Of a stretch of 14,641 nt of DNA, positions 1-14,641 are shown piece by piece. The stretch lies in IMG/VR virus record IMGVR_UViG_2675903658_000001; one strand, 5' to 3'. The first letter of the stretch is position 1. Each line of letters begins with the position of its first letter. A model generated the notes under the pieces. It worked only from the letters and a program-made list of their open reading frames with translations, did not search any database and was not told where the DNA came from. The translations under genes were made by a program, and so were the position numbers. Origin of the DNA: a virus. Lineage: Duplodnaviria; Heunggongvirae; Uroviricota; Caudoviricetes.

Positions 1-172
1 GATGCCGGGCCTCCTCCCGGGTCACGGAAAGCGTCACCCTGTATGTTTTCAGGTCAGCATTCAGCCCTGCCGCCATACGCTGTGAGTACCCGTCACCAAA
101 ACGCACTTCACGCACCGATGGCTGCGAGTTCACCTCCATATCCGGCTTCACTTTCCAGCGAAAGGTTTTCAT
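1..172 (-). CDS. M: Minor tail protein M, second copy; only the first ~57 codons are in the window, gene continues past the left edge
   Basis: Minus-strand ATG at 172-170 overlaps the stop of the H-fragment (ATGA). Nt 1-172 are identical by eye to 5628-5799, the 5' end of the complete M gene. Translation begins MKTFRWKVKPDMEV. Confidence 0.8.
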   Translation of the reverse strand, partial: MKTFRWKVKPDMEVNSQPSVREVRFGDGYSQRMAAGLNADLKTYRVTLSVTREEARH

Positions 173-690
173 CGACCGCTCCCTGATAACAGACCGCCAT
201 CACGCAACTGCAGCCGGAGTTCATCCTGTGCCCCCTTGCGGGCCATGTCATACACCGCCTTCATCAGCTGCGACCCCGCCTGTCCGTTGATACCGTCGTT
301 CTGAATCACCACGTGATTGTTCTGATTAAAATTAATGCCTTCGGCCCGCCGCATCTGCGCCGGACTTCCGGCAGCACCCACATACCCCCCTTCCGCATAG
401 CCCCGCATCAGGCGGTACAGGTTCCCGACACCAATCCGGCTGGTTGCCTCCTTCGTGAAGACAAACTCCCCGCGGTGGACAATCCCCGCTGGCTCATATT
501 TGCCACCGGTTCCCGTAAATCCCCCGGTCGCGAAATGGAAGTTCGCCGCCGCAGCCTGAATGGCTGTACCGCCTGACGCTGATGCGCCGCCACCGGTAGC
601 CCCGCCAATGGCGCTGCCGATACTCCCGACAATCCCCACCATTGCCTGCTTAAGCAGAATTTCTGTCATCATGGATTTTTGTCGTGACAT
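169..690 (-). pseudogene. Tape measure protein H, C-terminal fragment (173-aa ORF equal to the last ~170 residues of H); likely remnant
   Basis: Six-frame ORF 169..690; the protein aligns with the C-terminus of the full H at 5796..8375 at roughly 93% identity, with no indels (1-675 colinear with 5628-6302). The ATG at 690-688 lies inside the 95-bp repeat and has no obvious Shine-Dalgarno. Confidence 0.7.
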
Positions 691-770
691 AAGAATAATT
701 ATCTATAGTTGATCTTCGTAACGCTCCCGCAGCTCCGCAACTCTGCGGGATTTTTTTATTCTTTTTACCC
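676..770 (+). repeat. Copy A of a ~95-bp element (candidate sRNA body plus terminator), direct repeat of 3350-3450
   Basis: Aligned by eye to 3350-3450 at roughly 85% identity. Both copies start at TTTTTGTCGTGA and end at GGGATTTTTTTATTCTTTTTACCC, and both begin (on the minus strand) exactly at the GGG-TAA that ends the upstream tail gene. Confidence 0.8.
725..765 (+). terminator. Intrinsic-terminator-like hairpin plus T-tract on the plus strand (copy A)
   Basis: Stem cccgcag (726-732) pairs with ctgcggg (743-749), 10-nt loop, followed by TTTTTTTATTCTTTTT (751-766). Confidence 0.55.
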
Positions 771-3101
771 AATCCGGCTCCCCTGGACAGTCCACTGACT
801 GCCGGTCCCCAGATAACGGGCAGATTTTTCCACCTGTGCCGTGTTCGTGATGCGTTTTTCTGAGAACCAGAATTCAAACTGTACCGTCGGGTCATACACC
901 GCAAGACGCGGGACCGCCGTTATCTGAAAATACCCCGGCGTCAGCTCAATGGTGGCGGGTTTTGCAGGCGCGTTAATCCGGAAGGTGGTGGTCGCAGGTT
1001 CGCCCTGCTGGCCGTAGCTGTTAATGGCCCGCACCGTCAGGGTGTATTCCCCCAGCGGCAGACCACTGAAACGGTGCTCCGTGTCTGCGGTGATGGCGGT
1101 GCTCACCAGACGGCTGTCTTCTCCGCTTCCGCTGGTCAGACGCAGACTGAAGCGCACACCCTTCACCACCCGCGGCGTGTCCCATTTCGCCTGTGCCAGA
1201 TACTGACCGTCAGCTGCACTCACCTCCACCGTCAGGTGCTGCACTGCCGGTGGGATAACGCTGTTCAGGCTGCCTGACTGCGGCTCAAAGCTGGCCCCGT
1301 TATCCACAATGGCTTCTTTTTCCGGTACGTGCTGCACCGCCGTGATGGCGAACGTGCCGTCCGTGTTTTCCCGAATGGAGACACAGCGGAACAGGCGACG
1401 ACGCAGTGACGGCAGGGAGAGTCCCCACACACCGTATGTCTCCACACCATCCGGCAGGGTGCTGACCTGTATCCGGTCAGGCGCGGGGTGTGCGGTGATG
1501 GCCACGCTCGCCGGCTTACCGCTGCCGTTAATCAGATTAACAGTGGCCGTGCCGGTCTCCGGCAGTGTCACCTCCCGGTCCAGCGTCAGGGTACGGCTGG
1601 CGGCATCGATGGACAGGACACGTCCGCCGGTCATGGTCCCGGCATAGTCGTTATCACAGATTTCAATGATGTCACCGGGTGTGTGACGCAGCCCCTGTGA
1701 CCCGAGCGTGAAATCCACCGTCTGCGTTTCCAGCAGTTCGGTCTTTATCACCCACAGCCCGGCACGGTGGGCCTGACCGCGGCTGGTACAGCCGAACGCG
1801 TCCATCTTCAGCAGGTTGCGTCCGTAGCGCAGTATGGCTTCCGGGTCTTCCACCAGTTCCGTGGAGGTCTGCCAGCCGTTCTGCGGGTCGGTGTAATTCA
1901 CCTCCACTGCCGTGTGCCGGTCCTTCAGGGCACTGAAGCTGTAGCGGAAACCCACGCCGTTATCATCCACCACCACATCGCTGTTGGTGTACGGCCACAC
2001 CACATCCGACGGACGGTCCTGAACGAACGTCAGCGTCTGGCCGTTCCATACCGGCATACAGCGCATCGCAGAGCAGAAATCACTGAGAACGTCCCACGCC
2101 TTACGCTGTTGTGCCAGGTACGCATTAAAGGTCATCCGCGGCTCGGTCCCCCCGAAACCATCCGGGACCGTCTGGTCGCAGTACTGCCCGATGGCATACA
2201 GCGCCCACTTGTCCACATCCGCCGCCCCCAGACGTTTTCCCATGCCGTAGCGCGGGTGAGTCAGCATGTCCCACAGACACCAGGCCGGGTTGTTGCTGTA
2301 TGCCGGTTTCAGGCTGCCGTCCCAGATACCACTGTACGTGCGTTTTTCCGGGTCATAGTTTGACGGCACCTGGATGATGCGACCGCGGATATGGTAGTTC
2401 ACCGTCATCTGCTGGCCGCCGAACTGCTCCGCATCCACCTGCAGCCCCACAATGGCCGTGTTCGGGTAGCACTGTTTCACATCGATGATTTCGGTGTATG
2501 ACGACCACAGCGTCTTATTCTGCAGCTGGTCCGTGGTGCTGTCCGCCGTCTCCCTGACCATCCGGATGTTAAAGGGCCGGGGAGGCAGATTATCCAGAAT
2601 CACCGAGGCCAGGAACTGCGAGGTGGTCTTGCCGTTAATGGTGACATCCTTTTCCGTCACCCAGCGGCCATTACGCTGTAACTGAATCAGAATCCGGACA
2701 GAGGAAGGATTACGGTCGCCCTTTGACGTGGTCTGCACCAGTGACTGCACCCCGAAGGTAACCCGCAGGCGGTCAATGTTCGCGGACGTAATGGTGCGCG
2801 TCACCGGTTTTGCCTTCGTCACTTCCACGCCCAGTCCGGTTTCAGCTCCGGAGGACTCAAAGCCTTCCGGTGGTGTCTGCTCCTGCTCCCCGGCACGCCA
2901 GACCGCAGTCACACCGTGTATCACGGGATTACCGTCCGTGTCCGTCAGCGGGGTTTTGTTCACCAGAATACTCTGCAGTCCCTTCACCGGACCTTCTATC
3001 GGTCCCTCACCAATCGCATCAATCACACTCATCATCTGCGTGGATTTGAGATTATCCTTCGCCTCACGAGGCGTGTGTGCCTTACCGCCACCTTTTCCCA
3101 T
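765..3101 (-). CDS. J: Tail tip / host-specificity protein J, N-terminal ~765 residues only; C-terminal receptor-binding part missing
   Basis: 778-aa ORF starting [22 protein letters not shown], matching lambda J residue for residue over much of its length as I recall it. RBS AGGGGAAGG 4 nt upstream. Similarity ends after ...RYLGT, then ~12 unrelated residues and a stop at the repeat junction. Lambda J is about 1132 aa. Confidence 0.85.
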
Positions 3102-3204
3102 ACAGCCTTCCCCTGAATAAATTAACCGCCACTTGCCATTCCGTACAGAAGTCGGATATCCTTCGCCCGAAAAGCATGAAACACATTTCTGCCATGCTAA
3201 AGAG

Positions 3205-3240
3205 AAACCCCGGTATCAGCAGATACCGGGGTTTTCTTTC
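3205..3240. terminator. Bidirectional intrinsic-terminator-like hairpin in the I-J intergenic insert
   Basis: Perfect 10-bp stem ccccggtatc (3208-3217) / gataccgggg (3222-3231) with loop agca, flanked by AAA on the 5' side and TTTTCTTTC on the 3' side, so it is followed by a U-rich tract on both strands. Confidence 0.65.
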
Positions 3241-3306
3241 ATGCCCACCGATAATCCTGTTGGTTAAAACCGGTAATGGCATAAAAATTCTGAATATCTT
3301 CACATT

Positions 3307-3334
3307 TTCACAAACTGACTGTGGCGCGTATAAT
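3307..3334 (+). promoter_or_regulatory. Near-consensus sigma70 promoter, antisense to the tail operon
   Basis: -35 TTCACA (3307-3312), 16-bp spacer, perfect -10 TATAAT (3329-3334); predicted start near 3341. It lies in the AT-rich insert, not in coding sequence. Confidence 0.55.
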
Positions 3335-3340
3335 TTCTCT

Positions 3341-3440
3341 GCGTTAATTTTTTTGTCGTGATATAAGAATAATTCCTTACACTTAATCTTCGTAACTCTC
3401 CCGCAGTTCCTGTCCGCGATCACTGCGGGATTTTTTTATT
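3341..3440 (+). ncRNA. Candidate ~100-nt small RNA, antisense to the 3' end of gene I
   Basis: Runs from the predicted start to the intrinsic terminator: 9-bp stem tcccgcagt (3399-3407) / actgcggga (3422-3430) then TTTTTTT (3431-3437). No plausible ORF. The body is conserved in the second copy at 676-770. Confidence 0.45.
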
Positions 3441-3450
3441 CTTTTTACCC
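3350..3450 (+). repeat. Copy B of the ~95-bp element, direct repeat of 676-770
   Basis: See copy A. Here the element abuts the stop codon of I (TAA at 3447-3445 on the minus strand). Confidence 0.8.
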
Positions 3451-4125
3451 CTGCCGCCCGATAACCACGACCTTTCCGCCCCCGCCTTCATCACGGGTGC
3501 TGATGTCCTGGGATATACGGCGGGAGCCAACCAGCATTTCCCCGTAAGGCACCGGCATCGGGTTCCCCTGGGCAATCATGTTATCCAGCGAGGAAAAGTA
3601 CGTGTTCTGTCTGCCGTTATCCGTTGCGCGGTAATCCGGTGTTTTTGCCTTCGGGGCCAGCATCTGGGCCACACCGCCCAGTATCATGCTGGCCCCCAGT
3701 GAAAACAGCATCGTGGTGGCAGAAAAACCGCCGGCACTCAGGGCTGTACCCCATAACACCATCGAGGCACCGGCCGTGAAGAAAGAGCCCACGATGGCTG
3801 CCGCCCCCAGCACAATCTGCAGTCCGCCCTTTCCGGCTCCGGCCAGTCGCGGCACAATGTGGATGACCGTTCCCTCACCCAGCTGTTCGTGAAGACGGGC
3901 GTACACCGCCTCCGGTGCCGTGTCATCACCGGCAATACGTATCTGGTACCAGCCTTCGTTCATCTGACGGCGAAAGCCCGGCACCTGTAACGACAGGGCA
4001 CGGATGGCTTCCGCTGCCGTGTTCACATACAGGCTGAGGCGGCGGCCAAATCGTTGCAAATCCCCGTGAAGGCAGATGCGTGCCAGTGGCGGTGACGCCA
4101 GACAGAATGCGTTCGTCGTTGCCAT
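3445..4125 (-). CDS. I: Tail tip assembly protein I (ubiquitin-like N-terminal domain family)
   Basis: 226-aa ORF starting MATTNAFCLASPPLARICLHGDLQRFGRR, lambda I-like. The start lies ~100 nt inside the 3' end of K in another frame, as in lambda. Confidence 0.9.
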   Translation of the reverse strand: MATTNAFCLASPPLARICLHGDLQRFGRRLSLYVNTAAEAIRALSLQVPGFRRQMNEGWYQIRIAGDDTAPEAVYARLHEQLGEGTVIHIVPRLAGAGKGGLQIVLGAAAIVGSFFTAGASMVLWGTALSAGGFSATTMLFSLGASMILGGVAQMLAPKAKTPDYRATDNGRQNTYFSSLDNMIAQGNPMPVPYGEMLVGSRRISQDISTRDEGGGGKVVVIGRQG

Positions 4126-4766
4126 TTTTCGGAATACCTCTCCCGTTTACTCAGTTGTTCAGGAATATGGTGCAGCAGCTCGCCGTCACCACAGTAAATG
4201 GCGGCATGATTCGGCACCGATGAACCAAAACAGCACAGCAGCACATCGCCCGGCTGCGCCGCTGACAACGGCACCTGATACAGCCCTGTGGCCTCCAGAT
4301 TATCAAGATAGAGATTCTGGCCGTTACGCCACCAGTCATCCTCACGATGAAAGTCCGGCATCTCAGTCCCCGCCAGATGGTAAGCGTCCCGGAACAGCGT
4401 GTAACAGTCCGTCACCCCGTGCTCAAAGCGCCGCCCGGTGAGATGCGGCACACAGCGGAACTTATGAATCGCCCCCCGGCAGACCAGCCACCACGGCAAA
4501 TCACTCTGCACCTGCAGCCGCCGGTCGGCCTCACTCAGCCAGGGCAGACCACCGGGATGACTGTGGACCAGCGCCACAATCTCACCCTGCATCTCTGCCC
4601 GCAGCCAGTCTTCCGGTGCAATACGAAAATACGCCTCCGGCTCTGCAGAGATATTCACACAAGGGATATACCGCTCCCCCTCCGGCGTTCTCACCACTAA
4701 GCCGCACGACTCCGCAGGCACACACCGCCGGGCATGCGCCAGAATCGCTGATTCTGTCTGTGTCAT
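4023..4766 (-). CDS. K: Tail tip assembly protein K (JAB/MPN metalloprotease-like plus NlpC/P60 peptidase-like domains)
   Basis: 247-aa ORF with a JAMM motif HSHPGGLPWLSEAD and an NlpC/P60-type Cys/His region (GVTDCYTLF ... NHAAIY). It starts 5 nt after the L stop with no strong SD, so the true start could be an internal Met. Confidence 0.88.
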   Translation of the reverse strand: MTQTESAILAHARRCVPAESCGLVVRTPEGERYIPCVNISAEPEAYFRIAPEDWLRAEMQGEIVALVHSHPGGLPWLSEADRRLQVQSDLPWWLVCRGAIHKFRCVPHLTGRRFEHGVTDCYTLFRDAYHLAGTEMPDFHREDDWWRNGQNLYLDNLEATGLYQVPLSAAQPGDVLLCCFGSSVPNHAAIYCGDGELLHHIPEQLSKRERYSEKWQRRTHSVWRHRHWHASAFTGICNDLAAASACM

Positions 4767-4771
4767 TGGAT

Positions 4772-5470
4772 TTACTGCGAAAGTTTATTAATGGAAAGGA
4801 AACCGCCAAAATTAGCCACCATGCCGCGCATCTCACACCCGCGCATGCACTTGCTGCATCTGTCCTTACGGATATCCGTGGTGGGGTTGTCGAACTCATC
4901 CGCCACCGCAGGACCGTTATACCCGCATTCATCTCCCCGGTAATCCCACATACAGGTGTTCGCCAGCATGATGCGACCGGGAAACAGCGCCCCGTCCGTC
5001 TCGGTCGGTGTAGCCAGCACAAACGAGGCCGTCATGGCTGTCAGCTGCGACATCTGCTCCACCACCCAGCGGTCACTCAGCTCCTGCTCCGGGTCCGCCT
5101 CCGGATTGCCCGCAACGAAATTCACCGCATCCAGAAAACGGGCATACACCCGGCGGCGGACCACCGTGGCCCCCACCAGACTCTGCAGGTCTTCCGCCAT
5201 CCCGGTGACCAGACCGAACAGATTGGACACCGTCAGCGACGGTCTGGCACTGCTGCCCCGGCCGTTCATCTCAAAGCCGCTGCCGTCAATCGGGTATGCC
5301 TCATACTTACGCCCCTGCCAGGTGACCGGCTCCCCTTTTTCATTCAGCTCATTACAGAAAAAATACCGCTCACCGCCCTGTACCGTCAGGTCGATTTCCC
5401 AGAGTACCACCCGCGGTGACTGCTCTGACTTAACCGACTCGTTCAGACTTTCTTCGCGAATATCCTGCAT
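4772..5470 (-). CDS. L: Minor tail protein L
   Basis: 232-aa ORF, MQDIREESLNESVKSEQSPRVVLWEIDLT..., lambda L-like with the same length. Its start overlaps the M stop (TGATG). Confidence 0.93.
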   Translation of the reverse strand: MQDIREESLNESVKSEQSPRVVLWEIDLTVQGGERYFFCNELNEKGEPVTWQGRKYEAYPIDGSGFEMNGRGSSARPSLTVSNLFGLVTGMAEDLQSLVGATVVRRRVYARFLDAVNFVAGNPEADPEQELSDRWVVEQMSQLTAMTASFVLATPTETDGALFPGRIMLANTCMWDYRGDECGYNGPAVADEFDNPTTDIRKDRCSKCMRGCEMRGMVANFGGFLSINKLSQ

Positions 5471-5799
5471 CAGTTCACCACCTGCTTAAACTCCGCGCTG
5501 AACTCAACGCGCAACATCCCGACCCGCGCAGACCACCCGGCACAGGTCACCTTTATCTGCCGGTATGCATAGGGTGGCTTCCACAAAAATGCCTTCCAGC
5601 CCCCGTGCTCTGCCAGGAACGCTTCCAGATGCCGGGCCTCCTCCCGGGTCACGGAAAGCGTCACCCTGTATGTTTTCAGGTCAGCATTCAGCCCTGCCGC
5701 CATACGCTGTGAGTACCCGTCACCAAAACGCACTTCACGCACCGATGGCTGCGAGTTCACCTCCATATCCGGCTTCACTTTCCAGCGAAAGGTTTTCAT
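5470..5799 (-). CDS. M: Minor tail protein M
   Basis: 109-aa ORF, MKTFRWKVKPDMEV..., lambda M-like with the same length. ATGA overlap with the H stop. Confidence 0.93.
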   Translation of the reverse strand: MKTFRWKVKPDMEVNSQPSVREVRFGDGYSQRMAAGLNADLKTYRVTLSVTREEARHLEAFLAEHGGWKAFLWKPPYAYRQIKVTCAGWSARVGMLRVEFSAEFKQVVN

Positions 5800-8375
5800 C
5801 CACCGCTCCCTGATAACATACCGCCATCACGCAACTGCAGCCGGAGTTCATCCTGTGCCCCCTTGCGGGCCATCTCATACACCGCTTTCATCAGCTGCGG
5901 CCCTGCCCGCCCGTTGGGGCCGTCGTTCTGAATCACCACGTGATTGTTCTGATTAAAATTAATGCCTTCCGCCCGCCGCATCTGCGCCGGACTTCCGGCA
6001 CCGCCGACATAACCACCTTCCGCATAGCCCCGCATCAGGCGGTACAGATTGCCGACACCAATCCGGCTGGTCGCCTCCTTCGTGAAGACAAACTCCCCGC
6101 GATGAACAATCCCCGCAGGTTCATATTTACCCCCCGTCCCCGTAAATCCCCCGGTCGCGAAATGGAAGTTCGCCGCCGCAGCCTGAATGGCCGTCCCCGT
6201 GGAGGCAGACGCACCACCACCGAAAGCACCGCCAATGGCGCTGCCGATACTCCCGACTATCCCCACCATCGCCTGCTTCAGAAAAATCTCTGTCAGCATG
6301 GACAGCACAGAACGGGTGAAACCACGCCAGTTCTGTTCGCTGCCGGTCAGCATCGCTGCCATATTCTGTGCAATACCGTCAAAGGTCTGCGTGGCAGCAC
6401 TTTTTACCTGCGACATACTGTCCGTGGCACTCTCTTCCCACTCACTCCAGCCGGACCTGAGGCCTGCCATCCAGTTCCCGCGAAGCAGGTCTTCAGCCGC
6501 CCAGGTCTTTTTCTGCTCTGACATGACGTTATTCAGCGCCAGCGGATTATCGCCATACTGTTCCTTCAGGCGCTGTTCTGTGGCTTCCCGTTCTGCCTGC
6601 CGGTCAGTCAGCCCCCGGCTTTTCGCATCAATGGCGGCCCGTTTTGCCCGTTGCTGCTGTGCGAATTTATCCGCCTGCTGCGCCAGCGCGTTCAGGCGCT
6701 CCTGATACGTAACCTTGTCGCCAAGTGCAGCCAGCTGGCGTTTGTACTCCAGCGTCTCATCTTTATGCGCCAGCAGGGATTTCTCCTGTGCAGACAGCTG
6801 GCGACGTTGCGCCGCCTCCTCCAGTACCGCGAACTGACTCTCCGCCTTCCACAAATCCCGGCGCTGCTGGCTGATTTTCTCATTCGCTCCGGCATGCTTC
6901 TCCAGCGTCCGGAGTTCTGCCTGAAGCGTCAGCAGGGCAGCATGAGCACTGTCTTCCTGACGATCGCCCGCAGACACCTTCACGCCGGACTGTTTCGGCT
7001 TTTTCAGCGTCGCTTCATAGTCCTTTTTCGCCGCCGCCATCAGCGTGTTGTAATCCGCCTGCAGGATTTTCCCGTCTTTCAGGGCCTTATTCAGCTCTTC
7101 CTGCCGGTCAGTATATTTCTCCAGTGGCGTCAGCAGACGCTCATACGCCTTCTGCGCCTCTCCGGTATACTTCAGCTGTGACGCCTCACGCTCAGCCCGG
7201 TCCCTTGCCGCCAGTTCACCGGCTTTTTCCATATCCGACTGCAGCGTGGCCGCTGCCAGACCCAGACGGGCATTTTCCCGGTCATCCCATGCCCCCTGAA
7301 GGTTCGCACGAAAAGAGGAGGTCTTTCCCCGGCGCTGGCTCCGGCTCTGGTACCACTGCCATTTTTTATCCGCCTCATCAAATGCCTTCTGCGCACTGGC
7401 GAGCATATCCGCTGAGGATTCCGGACGACCGATATCCAGAATGGCATCCCACATCGATTTGAATGCCTTCCCTGTTTTATCCGCCCAGGTCTCCAGTGTT
7501 CCCATGTTTTCTTTCAGGCGACGGGTCTGCTCATCAAAGCCTTTCGTGGCGATATCGTTCGCCGCCTGTAAGGCTCCGGCCTCGTCTCCGGAACGCTGCA
7601 GTTGTGCAACATACGCAATCTGCTCTGCCGTCACGTTACGAAACTGGCGCGCCATCGCCATCAGTCCCGACGTCGGGTCAGTGGTCAGCTTCCCGAAGGC
7701 TTCAGCGACTTTATCCACCTCCACACCGGATGCAGACGCAAAACGCGCGACACTCTGGTTGATGGCATCAAACTGTTCACCACCACGCACACCGGCATTC
7801 ACCAGGGCTGCCAGTGACTCTCTCGCCTGGTTAAACGTCAGCCCTGCTGCCTGCCCGGCTCTTGAGAGAGTCAGCATACGATCGGCAGTCAGTCCGGACT
7901 GATTACCGGAAAGAACCAGGGTTTTATTAAACGCTGAAAGCGTGGAATCTCCCTGGTACCAGGCGTACACCAGCGCACCTGTCGCCACCGCCAGCGAGGT
8001 GACCCCGACCATCGGCAGGGTGATCGCACCGGCAAGCCCCCTGAACATGGGGATCATCCCGCCGAAGGAGTCCTTCACCTGACCGCCCTGTTGCAGCAGG
8101 ATCAGCCAGGGATTCTGACCACCGGCAAGCTGCGTGGCGATATCCGTAAACTGTGCGGGCAGGGTTCGCATGGCCGCTTTATACTGCCCGACGGAAATCC
8201 CTGCTTTTTGTGCAGCCAGCGCCTGGCGGCTCAGGCCCTGTTCAACAGCACTGGCGGTTTTTCTGGCGTCGGTATCCAGACCTGAAAAATGACGCCTTAC
8301 CCGGCTCATCTGCTCATCGAAACGGACAGCATCCAGACTAAGGTCAATAACAAGATCACCAACCGGCTGGGACAT
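5796..8375 (-). CDS. H: Tail tape measure protein H
   Basis: 859-aa ORF, MSQPVGDLVIDLSLDAVRFDEQMSRVRRHFSG..., lambda H-like (about 853 aa in lambda). RBS GGGAGG 8 nt upstream. Gly-rich hydrophobic C-terminal segment. Confidence 0.95.
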   Translation of the reverse strand: MSQPVGDLVIDLSLDAVRFDEQMSRVRRHFSGLDTDARKTASAVEQGLSRQALAAQKAGISVGQYKAAMRTLPAQFTDIATQLAGGQNPWLILLQQGGQVKDSFGGMIPMFRGLAGAITLPMVGVTSLAVATGALVYAWYQGDSTLSAFNKTLVLSGNQSGLTADRMLTLSRAGQAAGLTFNQARESLAALVNAGVRGGEQFDAINQSVARFASASGVEVDKVAEAFGKLTTDPTSGLMAMARQFRNVTAEQIAYVAQLQRSGDEAGALQAANDIATKGFDEQTRRLKENMGTLETWADKTGKAFKSMWDAILDIGRPESSADMLASAQKAFDEADKKWQWYQSRSQRRGKTSSFRANLQGAWDDRENARLGLAAATLQSDMEKAGELAARDRAEREASQLKYTGEAQKAYERLLTPLEKYTDRQEELNKALKDGKILQADYNTLMAAAKKDYEATLKKPKQSGVKVSAGDRQEDSAHAALLTLQAELRTLEKHAGANEKISQQRRDLWKAESQFAVLEEAAQRRQLSAQEKSLLAHKDETLEYKRQLAALGDKVTYQERLNALAQQADKFAQQQRAKRAAIDAKSRGLTDRQAEREATEQRLKEQYGDNPLALNNVMSEQKKTWAAEDLLRGNWMAGLRSGWSEWEESATDSMSQVKSAATQTFDGIAQNMAAMLTGSEQNWRGFTRSVLSMLTEIFLKQAMVGIVGSIGSAIGGAFGGGASASTGTAIQAAAANFHFATGGFTGTGGKYEPAGIVHRGEFVFTKEATSRIGVGNLYRLMRGYAEGGYVGGAGSPAQMRRAEGINFNQNNHVVIQNDGPNGRAGPQLMKAVYEMARKGAQDELRLQLRDGGMLSGSGG

Positions 8376-9240: not shown

Positions 9241-9993
9241 TTACCCTGCAGCGCCCGCTTCAGTAACGGTGACTTCAGCCACTGCGGCGAACTGACCATT
9301 TCCGCTCACCACAGGGATCTGCACCTTACCTGTCGCCACGCCGTTTACCGTAATTGTCATATCTTTCACACTAATGGTGGCTTTCGACGGATCGGCGGAA
9401 ACCGCTCTGAACGTCTTGTCGGTTGCACTTTCCGGCTCAAAAGAAACCGTCAGGGTGGTTGTTTTCCCTTTTGCCACCGTACCGGATGTCGGCGTCACCT
9501 TAATCGCACTGACCGGCGTAATTTTGCTGCGTTCTTCCGCTACAGAAGGTTTACCCACGTTAGTGACTTTCACCGTGCGGGTGATCACTTCTTTCGCCGT
9601 CACGGCCTTACCGATACTGCTGACCCAGCCACGAAACACATCCACCGTGCCATTCGGAAAACGGATTTTATAGGCCCGGACATCGCCGCTTTCAAACCAG
9701 CCTATAAGCCCTTTCTGACCTTCCTCTCCCGGTTTCCAGGCCAGCGTAAAACTGGTATCACCTGCAGATTTCTGTCCCTGCCCGGTCGCGGTCCAGTCCG
9801 CGTCTTCATCATCCAGGTAGTTATCATCGTAGGGTTCTGCCGTCATCTCGCCCGGCGTCAGATCCTTCACCTTAGCCAGTCGCTGCCAGTCATCGTCTGA
9901 CAACGGGTTTGCATAAGCATCACCCTTGCCGTTGTAAACCCACAGAGTGGTACCGGCACCTTTTACCGGCTCAAGGGGATTTGGTGTTGCCAT
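9241..9993 (-). CDS. V: Major tail tube protein V with a C-terminal Ig-like domain
   Basis: 250-aa ORF, lambda V-like. RBS GAGGA. The C-terminal ~90 aa are Thr/Val-rich beta-strand sequence typical of the Ig-like decoration domain. Confidence 0.93.
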
Positions 9994-11722: not shown

Positions 11723-12751
11723 TTATTTCACCTGTACCACCACAAACTCATCCGGATCCGGCAGCACCATCAGCGGTGCGGACTGCGTCATGGTGAATTC
11801 ACGGGCCGGATCGCCCACAGTCAGCCAGTGTTTCGGATAACGGGAAGAGGCCACCACACCTTCGGACAACGCCTGCGCATCCTGAATGGCACCATAGCAA
11901 CGAATGCCCTCTGCTGCCGTATTCCCCAGGACCAGTGTGCCCTCCGGCAGATAACGTTTTTCGGTACCGTCCTCTGCCACATAAGACGTTTTCGCCACCA
12001 CAATGGCCAGATCGCCGTAATACCCCTTGAAGGACACCACTGCGCCCAGGTCTTTCACTGCCGTTTCGAGTTGTGAATTTGAGCCGCGACGGGTATCCAG
12101 TTTTTCGCGGAACAGCTTAAAGCCATTCAGCAGACGCCAGACCGTACCGTCCATAATGGCGATATTCACAAGGCCGCTGGCCTGATCGCAGTAGAGGTCA
12201 ATATCATGCGTCGGATCAAACGTATCACGGTCCTGCTCAGACCATTTTTTACCGTCAGCCTGCTCAATGTTATTTCCTTCAGAGCGCCCGAAATCCACCT
12301 CGACAGTATCAAACTGATCCCCTTCCATGGTGTATTTGCCATACAGCACGGCATTCACCGCCTGCATTTCTTCCACCTGGACAATGGCGTGCTCTTCCTG
12401 TTTGAGGTTATCGGTAATGATACGCAGACGACGGTAGGCTGGGTCGTTCAGCTGAGCCGGATCTTCACCAGGAAGGCGCTCAACCGCCTGCTGGTAATTA
12501 AATTCGTGTTTGGGCTTGACGTAGCCCGGACGTAACACGCGGGTTTCACCACCGCGATGGCGAAGCACTTTTCCTTCAACGATCGGGGAGACATAGGCCG
12601 CCACCGGCGTTTTTCCGGTAATTTTGTCCAGCATCACCTCTTCGGTGTGGAAATTCACCGTGCGGCGGAAAAACAGCTCCAGAAACAGCGCACGGAATTT
12701 AACTTTTTGTTCGGTATAACCGAGTAACTGGCGGGTCGTAAACAATCCCAT
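11723..12751 (-). CDS. E: Major capsid protein E
   Basis: 342-aa ORF, MGLFTTRQLLGYTEQKVKFRALFLELFFRR...SAPLMVLPDPDEFVVVQVK, lambda E-like (341 aa in lambda). RBS AGGA 8 nt upstream. Confidence 0.96.
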   Translation of the reverse strand: MGLFTTRQLLGYTEQKVKFRALFLELFFRRTVNFHTEEVMLDKITGKTPVAAYVSPIVEGKVLRHRGGETRVLRPGYVKPKHEFNYQQAVERLPGEDPAQLNDPAYRRLRIITDNLKQEEHAIVQVEEMQAVNAVLYGKYTMEGDQFDTVEVDFGRSEGNNIEQADGKKWSEQDRDTFDPTHDIDLYCDQASGLVNIAIMDGTVWRLLNGFKLFREKLDTRRGSNSQLETAVKDLGAVVSFKGYYGDLAIVVAKTSYVAEDGTEKRYLPEGTLVLGNTAAEGIRCYGAIQDAQALSEGVVASSRYPKHWLTVGDPAREFTMTQSAPLMVLPDPDEFVVVQVK

Positions 12752-12808: not shown

Positions 12809-13156
12809 TTACGGCAGCGCCGCGTGACTCAGGGCTGTACCGGCAAAGGCATTTGCCTTTTTGTGTTCATCCACACTGTCAGGCCAGCGGATTGCCTCCG
12901 TCGCAAAGGTCCCCGACTTGTAATAGGTCAGCACCGTCTCTGTGCCTTCAAGCGGCAGTACCAGTATGCCAACCGCACTACCGGCTTTCTGTCCATCCCA
13001 GACAACCAGTTTCCCGCTGGCTTCATCCAGCATCAGGGGCGTCAGTGCCGGTGTTGCCTGAGAAATCCCGCTGCTGCCTGTGGCGGTATGAGCCGGATCA
13101 TTACCGGCAAAAATACGTACTTCTGCACGTTGTTCAGTGATGGTTTTCGTTACCAT
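12809..13156 (-). CDS. D: Head decoration protein D
   Basis: 115-aa ORF containing NDPAHTATGSSG...TPLMLDEASGKLVVWDG...YKSGTF, lambda D-like. RBS GAGG 8 nt upstream. Confidence 0.93.
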   Translation of the reverse strand: MVTKTITEQRAEVRIFAGNDPAHTATGSSGISQATPALTPLMLDEASGKLVVWDGQKAGSAVGILVLPLEGTETVLTYYKSGTFATEAIRWPDSVDEHKKANAFAGTALSHAALP

Positions 13157-13192: not shown

Positions 13193-13795
13193 TCATGGCA
13201 TGGCCATGAGCATTTTCACGTCCGCATCACCGTCTTCTGACGTCTGTGACACGCCCCCCTGGACCGCTGCCGGTGAATGGTTCGCCATGAAATGTTCAAA
13301 CAGGGCGGTTGTGGATGCAGAGACCGGTTCTGCTTTATCCGGCGATGAGGACAGAATGTCGCGGGCAGCCTCCACCGTCATTCCGGGAAACGCCGCCAGT
13401 TTTTCAGCCTGCGCCTCAGCCCCTTTTGCCTCATCCAGAGCCATGATCTGATCACGGAGTGAGGGTCCGGCATCCGCCAGTGGTGCAGCCGCCAGGATCG
13501 GGCGGGCTTTTTCCACCGTCATCTCCGGCATCGCCGCCAGCGTTGCCGCCAGTTGTTCACGACCTTTAGCCTCTTCACACGCCATAATGCGATCGGCTTC
13601 ACTCTGCGTGGATGCCACCGGCTGCTGTGGTGCTGCCGCGGTCAGAATCGCCCGGGCCTGTTCAACGCTCATGCCCTGTTGTCCTGCCAGCATCGTGGCA
13701 AGGTGTTCACGTCCTTTCGCTTCCTGACACGTCAGGATCCCCATCACTCGCTGGTTCTCCTGCGCGGCAGCTTCCGTTGCAGTTAATTGCGGCAT
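13193..13795 (-). CDS. Nu3: Nu3-like scaffolding protein, made by in-frame internal initiation within C
   Basis: Internal ATG at 13795-13793 (MPQLTATEAAAQ...) is preceded by a strong SD AGGAGG 4-5 nt upstream, embedded in the C frame. It corresponds in position to lambda Nu3, which is nested in the 3' third of C. It contains three tandem ~48-aa repeats. Confidence 0.65.
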   Translation of the reverse strand: MPQLTATEAAAQENQRVMGILTCQEAKGREHLATMLAGQQGMSVEQARAILTAAAPQQPVASTQSEADRIMACEEAKGREQLAATLAAMPEMTVEKARPILAAAPLADAGPSLRDQIMALDEAKGAEAQAEKLAAFPGMTVEAARDILSSSPDKAEPVSASTTALFEHFMANHSPAAVQGGVSQTSEDGDADVKMLMAMP

Positions 13796-14641
13796 AGTGC
13801 CTCCTGTATCATGTGTGTTCAGCGCCGCAGCCATCACGCTGATGGCATCCGACGCATTGATTAATTCATCCGCCAGCCCGGCCTCAATGCCGGACTGACC
13901 TTCAAAAACGGCGGCCTCTGTTCCCGTGACTGCATCAACAGACAGACCGGTATACATCGCCACTTTTTCGGCAAACATCCGGCGCGCCGCATCAATCCGC
14001 TGCTGCATGTCCTGGCGAACCTCTTCCGGCAACGCTTCAAACTGATTGCCATCCACCTTGTGCGCCCCTGAGTAAATCAGCGTGATATCCACACCGGCCT
14101 GCGCCAGATGACCGGCATAGCTGACATGGCTCATCATCACGCCAATGGAGCCGATACGGGATGTCTGGGTAACCAGCCGTCGGGAGCAGGCCGACGCCAG
14201 CAGCATGGCTGCAGAACAGGCCGTGTCATTGCACAGTGCCCAGACCGGCTTCTGCTGACGGAGTCGGTAAATCATGTCAGCACAGTCAAACGCACCGGCG
14301 GCCTGCCCGCCCGGACTGTCAATGTCCAGCAGTACACCCCGCACCTGGCTATCCGCCATTGCCTGCTGAAGACAGGCGACAATGCCGTCATAGCCTGTCA
14401 TTCCGGAAAATGGCCGCATACCCCCCAGCCGGTGCACCAGCGTGCCTGTCACCGGCAGTACAGCAATACCGTTCACCACCCGGTAAACACGGGCCGGTCG
14501 TTTACCTCCGGCCATGTACTCGTCCGTTTCAGCCAGCATTCCGGGAGCATCAAGCTGTACCTGCTGTTGTGGTACCGAAAGACTTGCTGCCCCCATCTCG
14601 CGCCCGAGCGCGCAAAAGAAAACCCGCGCATAGGCGGGCTC
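13193..14641 (-). CDS. C: Capsid assembly protease C (S49/ClpP-like), 5' end beyond the right edge of the window
   Basis: The frame is open to the window edge; the upstream codons read EPAYARVFFCAL, matching lambda C near residue 25. The body has a lambda C-like core (VNGIAVLPVTG...VWALCNDTACSAAMLLASA...). Confidence 0.92.
   Translation of the reverse strand, partial: EPAYARVFFCALGREMGAASLSVPQQQVQLDAPGMLAETDEYMAGGKRPARVYRVVNGIAVLPVTGTLVHRLGGMRPFSGMTGYDGIVACLQQAMADSQVRGVLLDIDSPGGQAAGAFDCADMIYRLRQQKPVWALCNDTACSAAMLLASACSRRLVTQTSRIGSIGVMMSHVSYAGHLAQAGVDITLIYSGAHKVDGNQFEALPEEVRQDMQQRIDAARRMFAEKVAMYTGLSVDAVTGTEAAVFEGQSGIEAGLADELINASDAISVMAAALNTHDTGGTMPQLTATEAAAQENQRVMGILTCQEAKGREHLATMLAGQQGMSVEQARAILTAAAPQQPVASTQSEADRIMACEEAKGREQLAATLAAMPEMTVEKARPILAAAPLADAGPSLRDQIMALDEAKGAEAQAEKLAAFPGMTVEAARDILSSSPDKAEPVSASTTALFEHFMANHSPAAVQGGVSQTSEDGDADVKMLMAMP
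13313..13762 (-). repeat. Three tandem, diverged ~48-codon repeats within the C/Nu3 C-terminal region
   Basis: The protein repeats share the motif EAKGRE.LA..LA..P.MTVE.AR.IL.AAP (ILTCQEAKGREHLATMLAGQQGMSVEQARAILTAAAP / IMACEEAKGREQLAATLAAMPEMTVEKARPILAAAP / IMALDEAKGAEAQAEKLAAFPGMTVEAARDILSSSP). Lambda has one copy as I recall. Confidence 0.7.

Follow-up and report, generated by a model that had tools for sequence, protein, structure and literature searches.

A probable Rho-independent terminator between tail genes I and J, adjacent to the PasB sRNA gene, in lambda-like prophages of Escherichia coli

The late operon, the I-J spacer and the PasB gene

The window, by which the whole stretch of 14,641 nt analyzed here is meant (IMG/VR record IMGVR_UViG_2675903658_000001), is the late operon of a lambda-like prophage, encoded on the minus strand in the order C-D-E…V…H-M-L-K-I-J. 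The identity and the minus orientation of the operon follow from Pfam hits to C, an S49 protease (13193-14596), D (12809-13156), E (11723-12751), V (9241-9993), H (5796-8375), M (5470-5799), L (4772-5470), K (4023-4766), I and J, all on the minus strand. The tail assembly gene I (3445-4125, -) was identified by Pfam Lambda_tail_I as well as by RefSeq annotation, and the tail tip gene J (765-3101, -) by the Pfam families FNIII-A_GpJ, Phage-tail_3 and Ig_J. In the window J is truncated after 778 codons; the full-length J of CFT073 has 1230 aa. The J start codon is located at 3101-3099 (-) and is preceded by the Shine-Dalgarno sequence GGGGAAGG at 3113-3106. I and J are separated by a spacer of 343 bp (3102-3444). 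The region 3060-3480 was 100% identical to the prophages of CFT073, ATCC 25922, S88, CE10 and many other strains, and the I-J spacer of the matching prophage records carries no RefSeq annotation. In CFT073, position x of the window corresponds to NC_004431.1 1364525-(x-3060), with the plus strand of the window being the minus strand of CFT073.

The left end of the window is rearranged, with the stop codon that ends the truncated J at 765. Positions 676-770 consist of a promoterless 3' fragment of the sRNA gene pasB, described below, joined to an I-stop junction, and 1-690 (-) encodes a tape-measure C-terminal fragment that is 94% identical to the window's own H. Searches of complete E. coli genomes and of phage records did not recover the junctions at this end.

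Strong terminator-like hairpins could be observed on the late-operon strand after D (12801-12780, -) and after E (11715-11695, -), and a further one upstream of C (14641-14620, -). The two sense-strand hairpins after D and after E are the best terminator-like hairpins of the window scan, and such elements are therefore normal in this operon and need read-through by Q-modified polymerase. In the E2348/69 lysogen, the expression of the tail genes is very low, which counts against the terminator reading preferred below.

One transcription unit of the I-J spacer is oriented against the late operon. A promoter with 11 of 12 consensus positions (TTCACA-16-TATAAT, 3307-3334, +) was detected by a consensus scan and is conserved across the alleles described below. 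It is followed by the PasB sRNA gene at 3341-3437 (+), of which the start was predicted from the -10 hexamer, and by a terminator with a predicted stem at 3399-3429 and a U7 tail at 3431-3437. PasB was described as an 83-nt Hfq-dependent sRNA of EPEC E2348/69 using RIL-seq and northern blotting, and is listed in Table S6 of that study at NC_011601 1466343-1466261, between E2348C_1436 and E2348C_1437 (Pearl Mizrahi 2021, PMC8550237). The northern probe AATCCCGCAGTGATCGCGGAGCT and the Table S6 coordinates could both be mapped onto the window sequence by alignment with E2348/69, and the strong promoter-terminator unit at 3307-3437 (+) is the published PasB. For the published form of 83 nt, a start near 3355 would be expected. 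PasB is embedded in phage structural operons and is common in extraintestinal strains (Zhu, Shabalina and Storz 2026 preprint). It lacks annotation in the RefSeq records with which the window shares this sequence.

Homologs of PasB appear to have been recorded before under other names. EcOnc22, EcOnc23 and EcOnc24 are RNAs of ~85 nt that are destabilized without Hfq and were assigned to the prophages Sp15, Sp14 and Sp11 of O157:H7 Sakai (Tree et al. 2014, PMC4104026). The EcOnc coordinates of 2014 were calibrated with AgvB (old 1941783-835, now 1941920-981) and AsxR (old 1268494-542, now 1268629-681), which resulted in an offset of ~+137 to +142 bp relative to NC_002695.2. After this correction, the EcOnc22/23/24 peaks fall on PasB homologs at NC_002695.2 2676765-2676856 (L005), 2166xxx (L008) and 2902xxx (L009), and not on the hairpin block. 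An assignment of the EcOnc23 peak at 2676643-2676704 to the short-allele hairpin block was ruled out by the AgvB/AsxR calibration. EcOnc22-24 are therefore equated here with PasB. This equation is made in the present analysis: Table S6 gives EHEC homologs for PasA and PasD and none for PasB (PMC8550237), and a link between PasB and EcOnc22/23/24 is absent from both Pearl Mizrahi 2021 and the 2026 preprint.

The calibration with PasA/EcOnc51 was ambiguous and was left out. In Sp12, a second PasA-like terminator is located ~130 bp downstream of the PasA homolog (L006 41663-41684, corresponding to Sakai 2237662-2237683), and with corrected coordinates EcOnc51 seems to fall on this second terminator and not on the first PasA copy. 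In some spacers of the short allele described below (L255, L258, L262 and L273), the -10 side of the PasB promoter is replaced ~130 nt upstream of J by the unrelated sequence …ATGATATCTGCCACGGGGGCGTACAGAAAATGTGAAGA…, with the pre-J hairpin being kept.

Anatomy of the hairpin and two alleles of the spacer

Between PasB and J, a hairpin is located at 3208-3231. It has a perfect stem of 10 bp, including 7 G-C pairs, and a 4-nt loop AGCA; the left arm CCCCGGTATC occupies 3208-3217 and the right arm GATACCGGGG 3222-3231. On the plus strand, the stem is preceded by the A-tract AAAGAGAAA (3199-3207), which on the late-operon strand is the U-tract UUUCUCUUU 3' of the stem, and is followed by the U-tract TTTTCTTTC (3232-3240, +). 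The two transcribed tracts, UUUCUCUUU on the minus and UUUUCUUUC on the plus strand, each contain 7 U in 9 nucleotides. Folding of 49 nt yielded -26.4 kcal/mol for the plus and -27.1 kcal/mol for the minus strand (z-scores of -6.5 and -7.4, respectively), and an equally stable fold occurred in 0 of 200 shuffles; for the stem-loop alone the values were -18.5 and -19.1 kcal/mol. Thus, the perfect 10-bp hairpin with a U-tract on both strands that had been noticed in the first-pass annotation was confirmed in the sequence and folds strongly.

Intrinsic terminators are characterized by a GC-rich stem of 5-14 bp with a short loop and by a U-tract directly after the stem, and both features are present here. 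The plus-strand tract TTTTCTTTC makes the terminator of this allele bidirectional. The hairpin was not among the hits of the window terminator scan, probably since extension of the stem absorbs the A- and U-tracts. A literature search with the hairpin sequence retrieved no published mention. When one genome per species was scanned for exact matches, the hairpin turned up in a prophage contig of E. albertii only, and with a median of one copy per genome it is not a dispersed repeat.

The spacers of E2348/69, of Sakai Sp11, Sp12, Sp14 and Sp15, of several phages and of IMG/VR contigs were aligned. The PasB unit is common to all of them, and the segment between the PasB promoter and J occurs in two forms, a long and a short allele. 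Among the PasB-promoter sites listed (at least 192), at least 118 carry the long and at least 72 the short allele; the remaining 2 of 192 listed sites are long-allele spacers, one with a deletion and one with an IS insertion. The long allele, present in the window at 3102-3282, contains both the CCCCGGTATC hairpin and the promoter proposed in the first-pass annotation, and has a J leader of 97 nt (3102-3198, -) that includes the Shine-Dalgarno sequence. The short allele has a J leader of 35-45 nt and a distinct hairpin, CAGGCAYYC-N4-GRRTGCCTG, and the leaders of the two alleles are wholly different.

In the short allele, TTGTTTT follows the stem on the sense strand in every copy, whereas the plus strand never has a U-tract (tails such as TGTCATGACG are found). 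The stem contains a C-G to U-A double change, of which the intermediates are U·G on the sense and C·A on the plus strand. Of the 117 paired cells compared, 116 can pair on the sense strand versus 113 on the antisense strand. Pairing amounts to 99.1%, versus ~40% when the partners are slid, and the observed covariation was reached in 9 of 500 shuffles. This modest but consistent signal suggests that the short-allele structure is maintained as an RNA of the late-operon strand.

The long allele was found in 1446 of 5426 complete E. coli genomes (~27%) and is at least 99% identical in 1442 of the 1451 matching E. coli records. Among 114 long-allele copies, no substitution was found within 3126-3191. 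Because it is nearly invariant, the long allele offers no covariation or evolutionary test of its own. The diversity of its leader (pi 0.003) is lower than that of the adjacent J coding sequence (0.023); as a sign of selection this difference was rejected, because the copies were gathered by an exact match inside the hairpin and linkage explains it.

Two natural variants of the long allele were observed. A spacer that is otherwise of the long allele, in IMGVR_UViG_2671180417_000014 (L170, near 330 on the minus strand), lacks precisely the hairpin with its tracts, owing to a deletion of 47 nt between direct TTTCT repeats, and the hairpin is therefore dispensable, at least in a prophage. In L023, another IMG/VR contig, the stretch from the hairpin to the PasB promoter is interrupted by an IS element (5990-6010, corresponding to window position 3252).

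Hairpins and inserted genes upstream of J in other phages

A GC-rich hairpin followed by a T-tract on the sense strand just upstream of J is found in lambda, ev017, HK97 and HK225 and in the short-allele PasB spacers. In lambda, the I-J spacer of 60 bp contains GAAACCGCC-TGCG-GGCGGTTTT-GTCATTTAT, 22 nt before the J ATG, and the pre-J hairpin of ev017 equals that of lambda except for the loop. These unannotated hairpins resemble that of the window in their position and orientation relative to I and J, and their operon is a close relative; however, they comprise only six to eight pairs of another sequence, and no sRNA gene lies between I and the hairpin. Since the hairpin is present in lambda without PasB, it is older than PasB.

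In HK97 (AF069529), a curated 'terminator' is annotated at 15107-15129, with J starting from 15141. This terminator adjoins the 'moron' gp22 and the 'reverse moron' gp23. In HK225 (NC_019717), a 'rho-independent terminator' is annotated at 15508-15532 and the J homolog starts from 15542. As in the window, the hairpin of both phages is the last element before the ribosome-binding site of J and follows inserted extra genes, its U-tract lies on the late-operon strand, and antiterminated polymerase must read through it. The stem AGCCACC…GGTGGCT of HK97 and HK225 is, however, unrelated to the stem in the window, and the distance between hairpin and J start is 11 nt in HK97 and 9 nt in HK225, compared with the 97-nt leader of the window. 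HK97 and HK225 have a clean run of six to seven T, whereas the hairpin of the window has an additional U-tract on the opposite strand. Thus, judged from the sequences compared, a sense-strand hairpin before J appears to be a positional feature of every lambda-like tail operon examined, of which the sequence turns over.

Bidirectional intrinsic terminators reportedly occur between convergent transcription units. They share with the hairpin of the window the arrangement of a GC-rich stem between an A-tract and a U-tract; they differ in that no convergent transcript pair is documented at 3208-3231, and only the long allele is symmetric.

Genes inserted against the direction of the operon are not restricted to PasB. 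In locus L219 (380-900, an upstream sequence common to nine loci), a reverse-oriented gene is located upstream of J; it encodes a signal peptide and the motif HVHEKGNC…GGHFDP, recognized by eye, and we take its product to be a Cu/Zn superoxide dismutase (SodC). In this allele the PasB promoter is absent, and no hairpin was seen near J. The SodC-like gene is a further reverse moron at the I-J junction. Insertion of morons at this junction, in both orientations, is well recognized; the reverse moron of the window is PasB.

The candidate promoter and the role of the hairpin

Between the J start and the hairpin, the plus strand contains TTGCCA (3133-3138) and TATCCT (3157-3162). The first-pass annotation had proposed that this pair might drive a second antisense RNA of ~70 nt, which ends at the hairpin and overlaps the ribosome-binding region of J. 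Both hexamers and their 18-bp spacing are present in the sequence as it had described them, and the distance from the end of the -10-like hexamer to the stem is indeed 45 nt. The pair (3133-3162, +) was recovered by a consensus scan with 9 of 12 matching positions and is judged to be probably at chance level. The hypothetical RNA (3169-3238, +) is predicted to fold into a weak 5' hairpin (AGCAUG/CAUGCU), followed by AAGAGAAAC and the terminator.

It is considered unlikely that 3133-3162 is a weak sigma-70 promoter for a dedicated cis-antisense or trans-acting sRNA of ~70 nt (~3169-3238, +), which would be a second regulator beside PasB. Matches of 9/12 in which the -35 hexamer has TTG and the -10 hexamer TAnnnT are in the range of weak real promoters such as lac P. 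The pair retains these key positions and an AT-rich stretch lies upstream of it (3117-3126), but it reaches only 9/12 with an 18-bp spacer and has no extended -10 element. The whole window contains 3 promoter-like hits versus 6.7 ± 2.5 in shuffles, and all three hits of the 14.6 kb fall in the I-J spacer, which speaks for the second RNA. As a null, the 106 nt that separate the J start from the hairpin were dinucleotide-shuffled, and a hit of at least 9/12 occurred in 5.6% of the shuffles on the plus strand and in 9.2% on either strand; the local chance of ~6% is modest support.

Conservation does not separate the pair from its surroundings. More than 1400 genomes carry the segment unchanged and the pair is identical in 114 copies, but nearly all of 3102-3282 is equally invariant, so that linkage confounds this invariance, which is a property of the entire block. 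No counterpart of the promoter pair was found in the short allele, in which PasB functions without it. Most likely, the TTGCCA/TATCCT pair is a fortuitous match, and promoter activity is probably absent at 3133-3162.

The predicted RNA itself was also compared with known sRNAs. The Rfam scan at gathering level gave no hit in the window, and the best hit of a permissive scan was STnc310 with 19.4 bits versus a threshold of 40 (E=2.4). STnc310, BSnc120 and IR_84 were rejected as families, being chance-level hits to generic terminator-bearing sRNAs. The complementarity between the candidate RNA and PasB was no better than in shuffles, and the block 3102-3282 gave no alignment with PasB. The Sakai Sp12 spacer, at NC_002695.2 2217392-2217732, carries the allele of the window, and in it no EcOnc entry from Hfq CRAC could be found with the calibrated coordinates, in a list that is non-exhaustive and covers one growth condition.

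A-R-N triplets are typical of class II Hfq sRNAs. The AAGAGAAAC segment between the predicted 5' hairpin and the terminator contains three of these, which could fit a class II sRNA, yet such triplets are present in any bidirectional terminator. The Hfq-sRNA terminator module, as Tree et al. (2014, PMC4104026) cite it from Ishikawa 2012, consists of a U-rich stretch before the terminator hairpin and a long free U-tail; neither could be recognized in the candidate RNA. Instead, the stretch before the stem is the A-rich AAAGAGAAA, which is expected of any bidirectional terminator and, in the predicted fold, is base-paired to the interrupted U-tail. An A-rich stretch, a stem and an interrupted U-tail are just the 3' architecture of a bidirectional terminator.

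The proposed overlap with the ribosome-binding region of J could not be upheld either, as an RNA starting at ~3169 (+) would run away from the Shine-Dalgarno sequence at 3113-3106 and would be antisense to the J leader only, 68-140 nt upstream of the start codon. PasB and the proposed RNA are alike in being antisense-oriented promoter-plus-terminator units in a common spacer, but the promoter of PasB reaches 11/12, its tail is U7 and its existence is backed by experiments, whereas the proposed RNA has none of these and lies in a separate sequence block. Similarly, lambda OOP RNA and the convergent sRNA pairs at the PR' moron site (AsxR/EcOnc27; Tree 2014) are models for antisense or convergent phage RNAs of small size that stop at a terminator, as the proposed RNA would; their 5' ends and promoters are mapped, in contrast to the mere 9/12 consensus match here. 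It is thus doubtful that the invariant 181-bp block 3102-3282 encodes an unreported RNA of ~70 nt beside PasB, be it one with the long leader of J as its cis target or a trans-acting, class II-like Hfq RNA. If true, it would be an additional widespread prophage regulator; nothing in the analysis favors it. A short divergent RNA from a sense-strand promoter ending at the hairpin was rejected as well, because no minus-strand promoter above ~7/12 was found.

The reading that agrees best with these observations, with a probability of roughly 0.6, is that the hairpin at 3208-3231 is a Rho-independent terminator of the I-J junction, which works primarily on the late-operon strand and is read through by Q-modified polymerase, and that the promoter pair is fortuitous. 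Antitermination by Q is an established mechanism in lambda. The first-pass annotation had named as its alternative that the hairpin insulates the inserted segment and is passed by Q-antiterminated polymerase; of its two proposals, this one is favored by the comparison with lambda, ev017, HK97, HK225 and the short allele. From the sequence we infer both that termination would actually occur and which transcripts would be stopped.

On the late-operon sense strand, the presumed primary working strand, polymerase would transcribe the stem and then UUUCUCUUU. Polymerase without Q modification, for example from leaky or moron-derived transcription in the lysogen, would be stopped, and unmodified transcription would thereby be kept out of J and the cargo genes beyond. 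Scans of the minus strand detected no sense-strand promoter that would explain what the terminator stops in the lysogen, and by eye matches of at most ~7/12 were seen. During lytic growth, Q-modified polymerase would read through the hairpin, which may in addition stabilize the 3' end of the processed upstream message. In the long allele, the symmetric A- and T-tracts might also stop plus-strand transcription out of J and so shield the PasB promoter. Should TTGCCA/TATCCT fire at all, its transcript would be cut to ~70 nt by the terminator, as a by-product and not as a dedicated regulator.

That the selected role of the hairpin is on the plus strand, as an insulator against antisense transcripts from J that would otherwise occlude the strong PasB promoter, is improbable. 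Of the two U-tracts, the plus-strand tail UUUUCUUUC is the better one, and 75 nt separate the hairpin from the PasB -35 hexamer downstream of it, but the short allele has the same PasB promoter and lacks the plus-strand U-tract, lambda, HK97 and HK225 possess the hairpin without PasB, and no promoter-like site was found on the plus strand within J.

Less probable still is a processing or stability element of the late mRNA that is coupled to PasB, where cleavage of the duplex would detach the protective 3' hairpin from the K-I message or give the J message a hairpin at its 5' end. The sense transcript from I to the hairpin is complementary to PasB over the full length of the latter and the hairpin is stable, but the coupling is pure inference and the hairpin occurs in phages without PasB.

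A small protein encoded in the spacer, either by the 66-aa ORF at 3282-3082 (-) or by the plus-strand ORF from ATG 3176, can practically be dismissed: both ORFs exist and the phage ASU11 record annotates the former as hypothetical, but both run through the perfect palindrome, no convincing Shine-Dalgarno sequence precedes either of them, the long minus-strand frame is disrupted by indels of two nucleotides that distinguish the alleles, and there is no PHROG family match or RefSeq annotation. The ASU11 annotation, gp9c (L002 1523-1723, corresponding to window 3082-3282, -), is a 66-aa hypothetical protein that spans the hairpin and overlaps the J start, and is probably a gene-caller artefact.

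The pre-J terminator on the late-operon strand therefore remains the preferred reading, and the hairpin is real and most likely ordinary, an unannotated terminator of a known type. It would be present, unannotated, in about one quarter of complete E. coli genomes, including CFT073, ATCC 25922, ST131 strains and Sp12 of O157:H7 Sakai. For the Hfq data of Tree et al. (2014), the correction by ~+140 bp clarifies that the EcOnc22-24 peaks fall on PasB homologs. For the lambda-like phages, the recurrent putative pre-J terminator marks a hot spot of reverse morons, at which HK97 gp23, PasB and the SodC-like gene are found.
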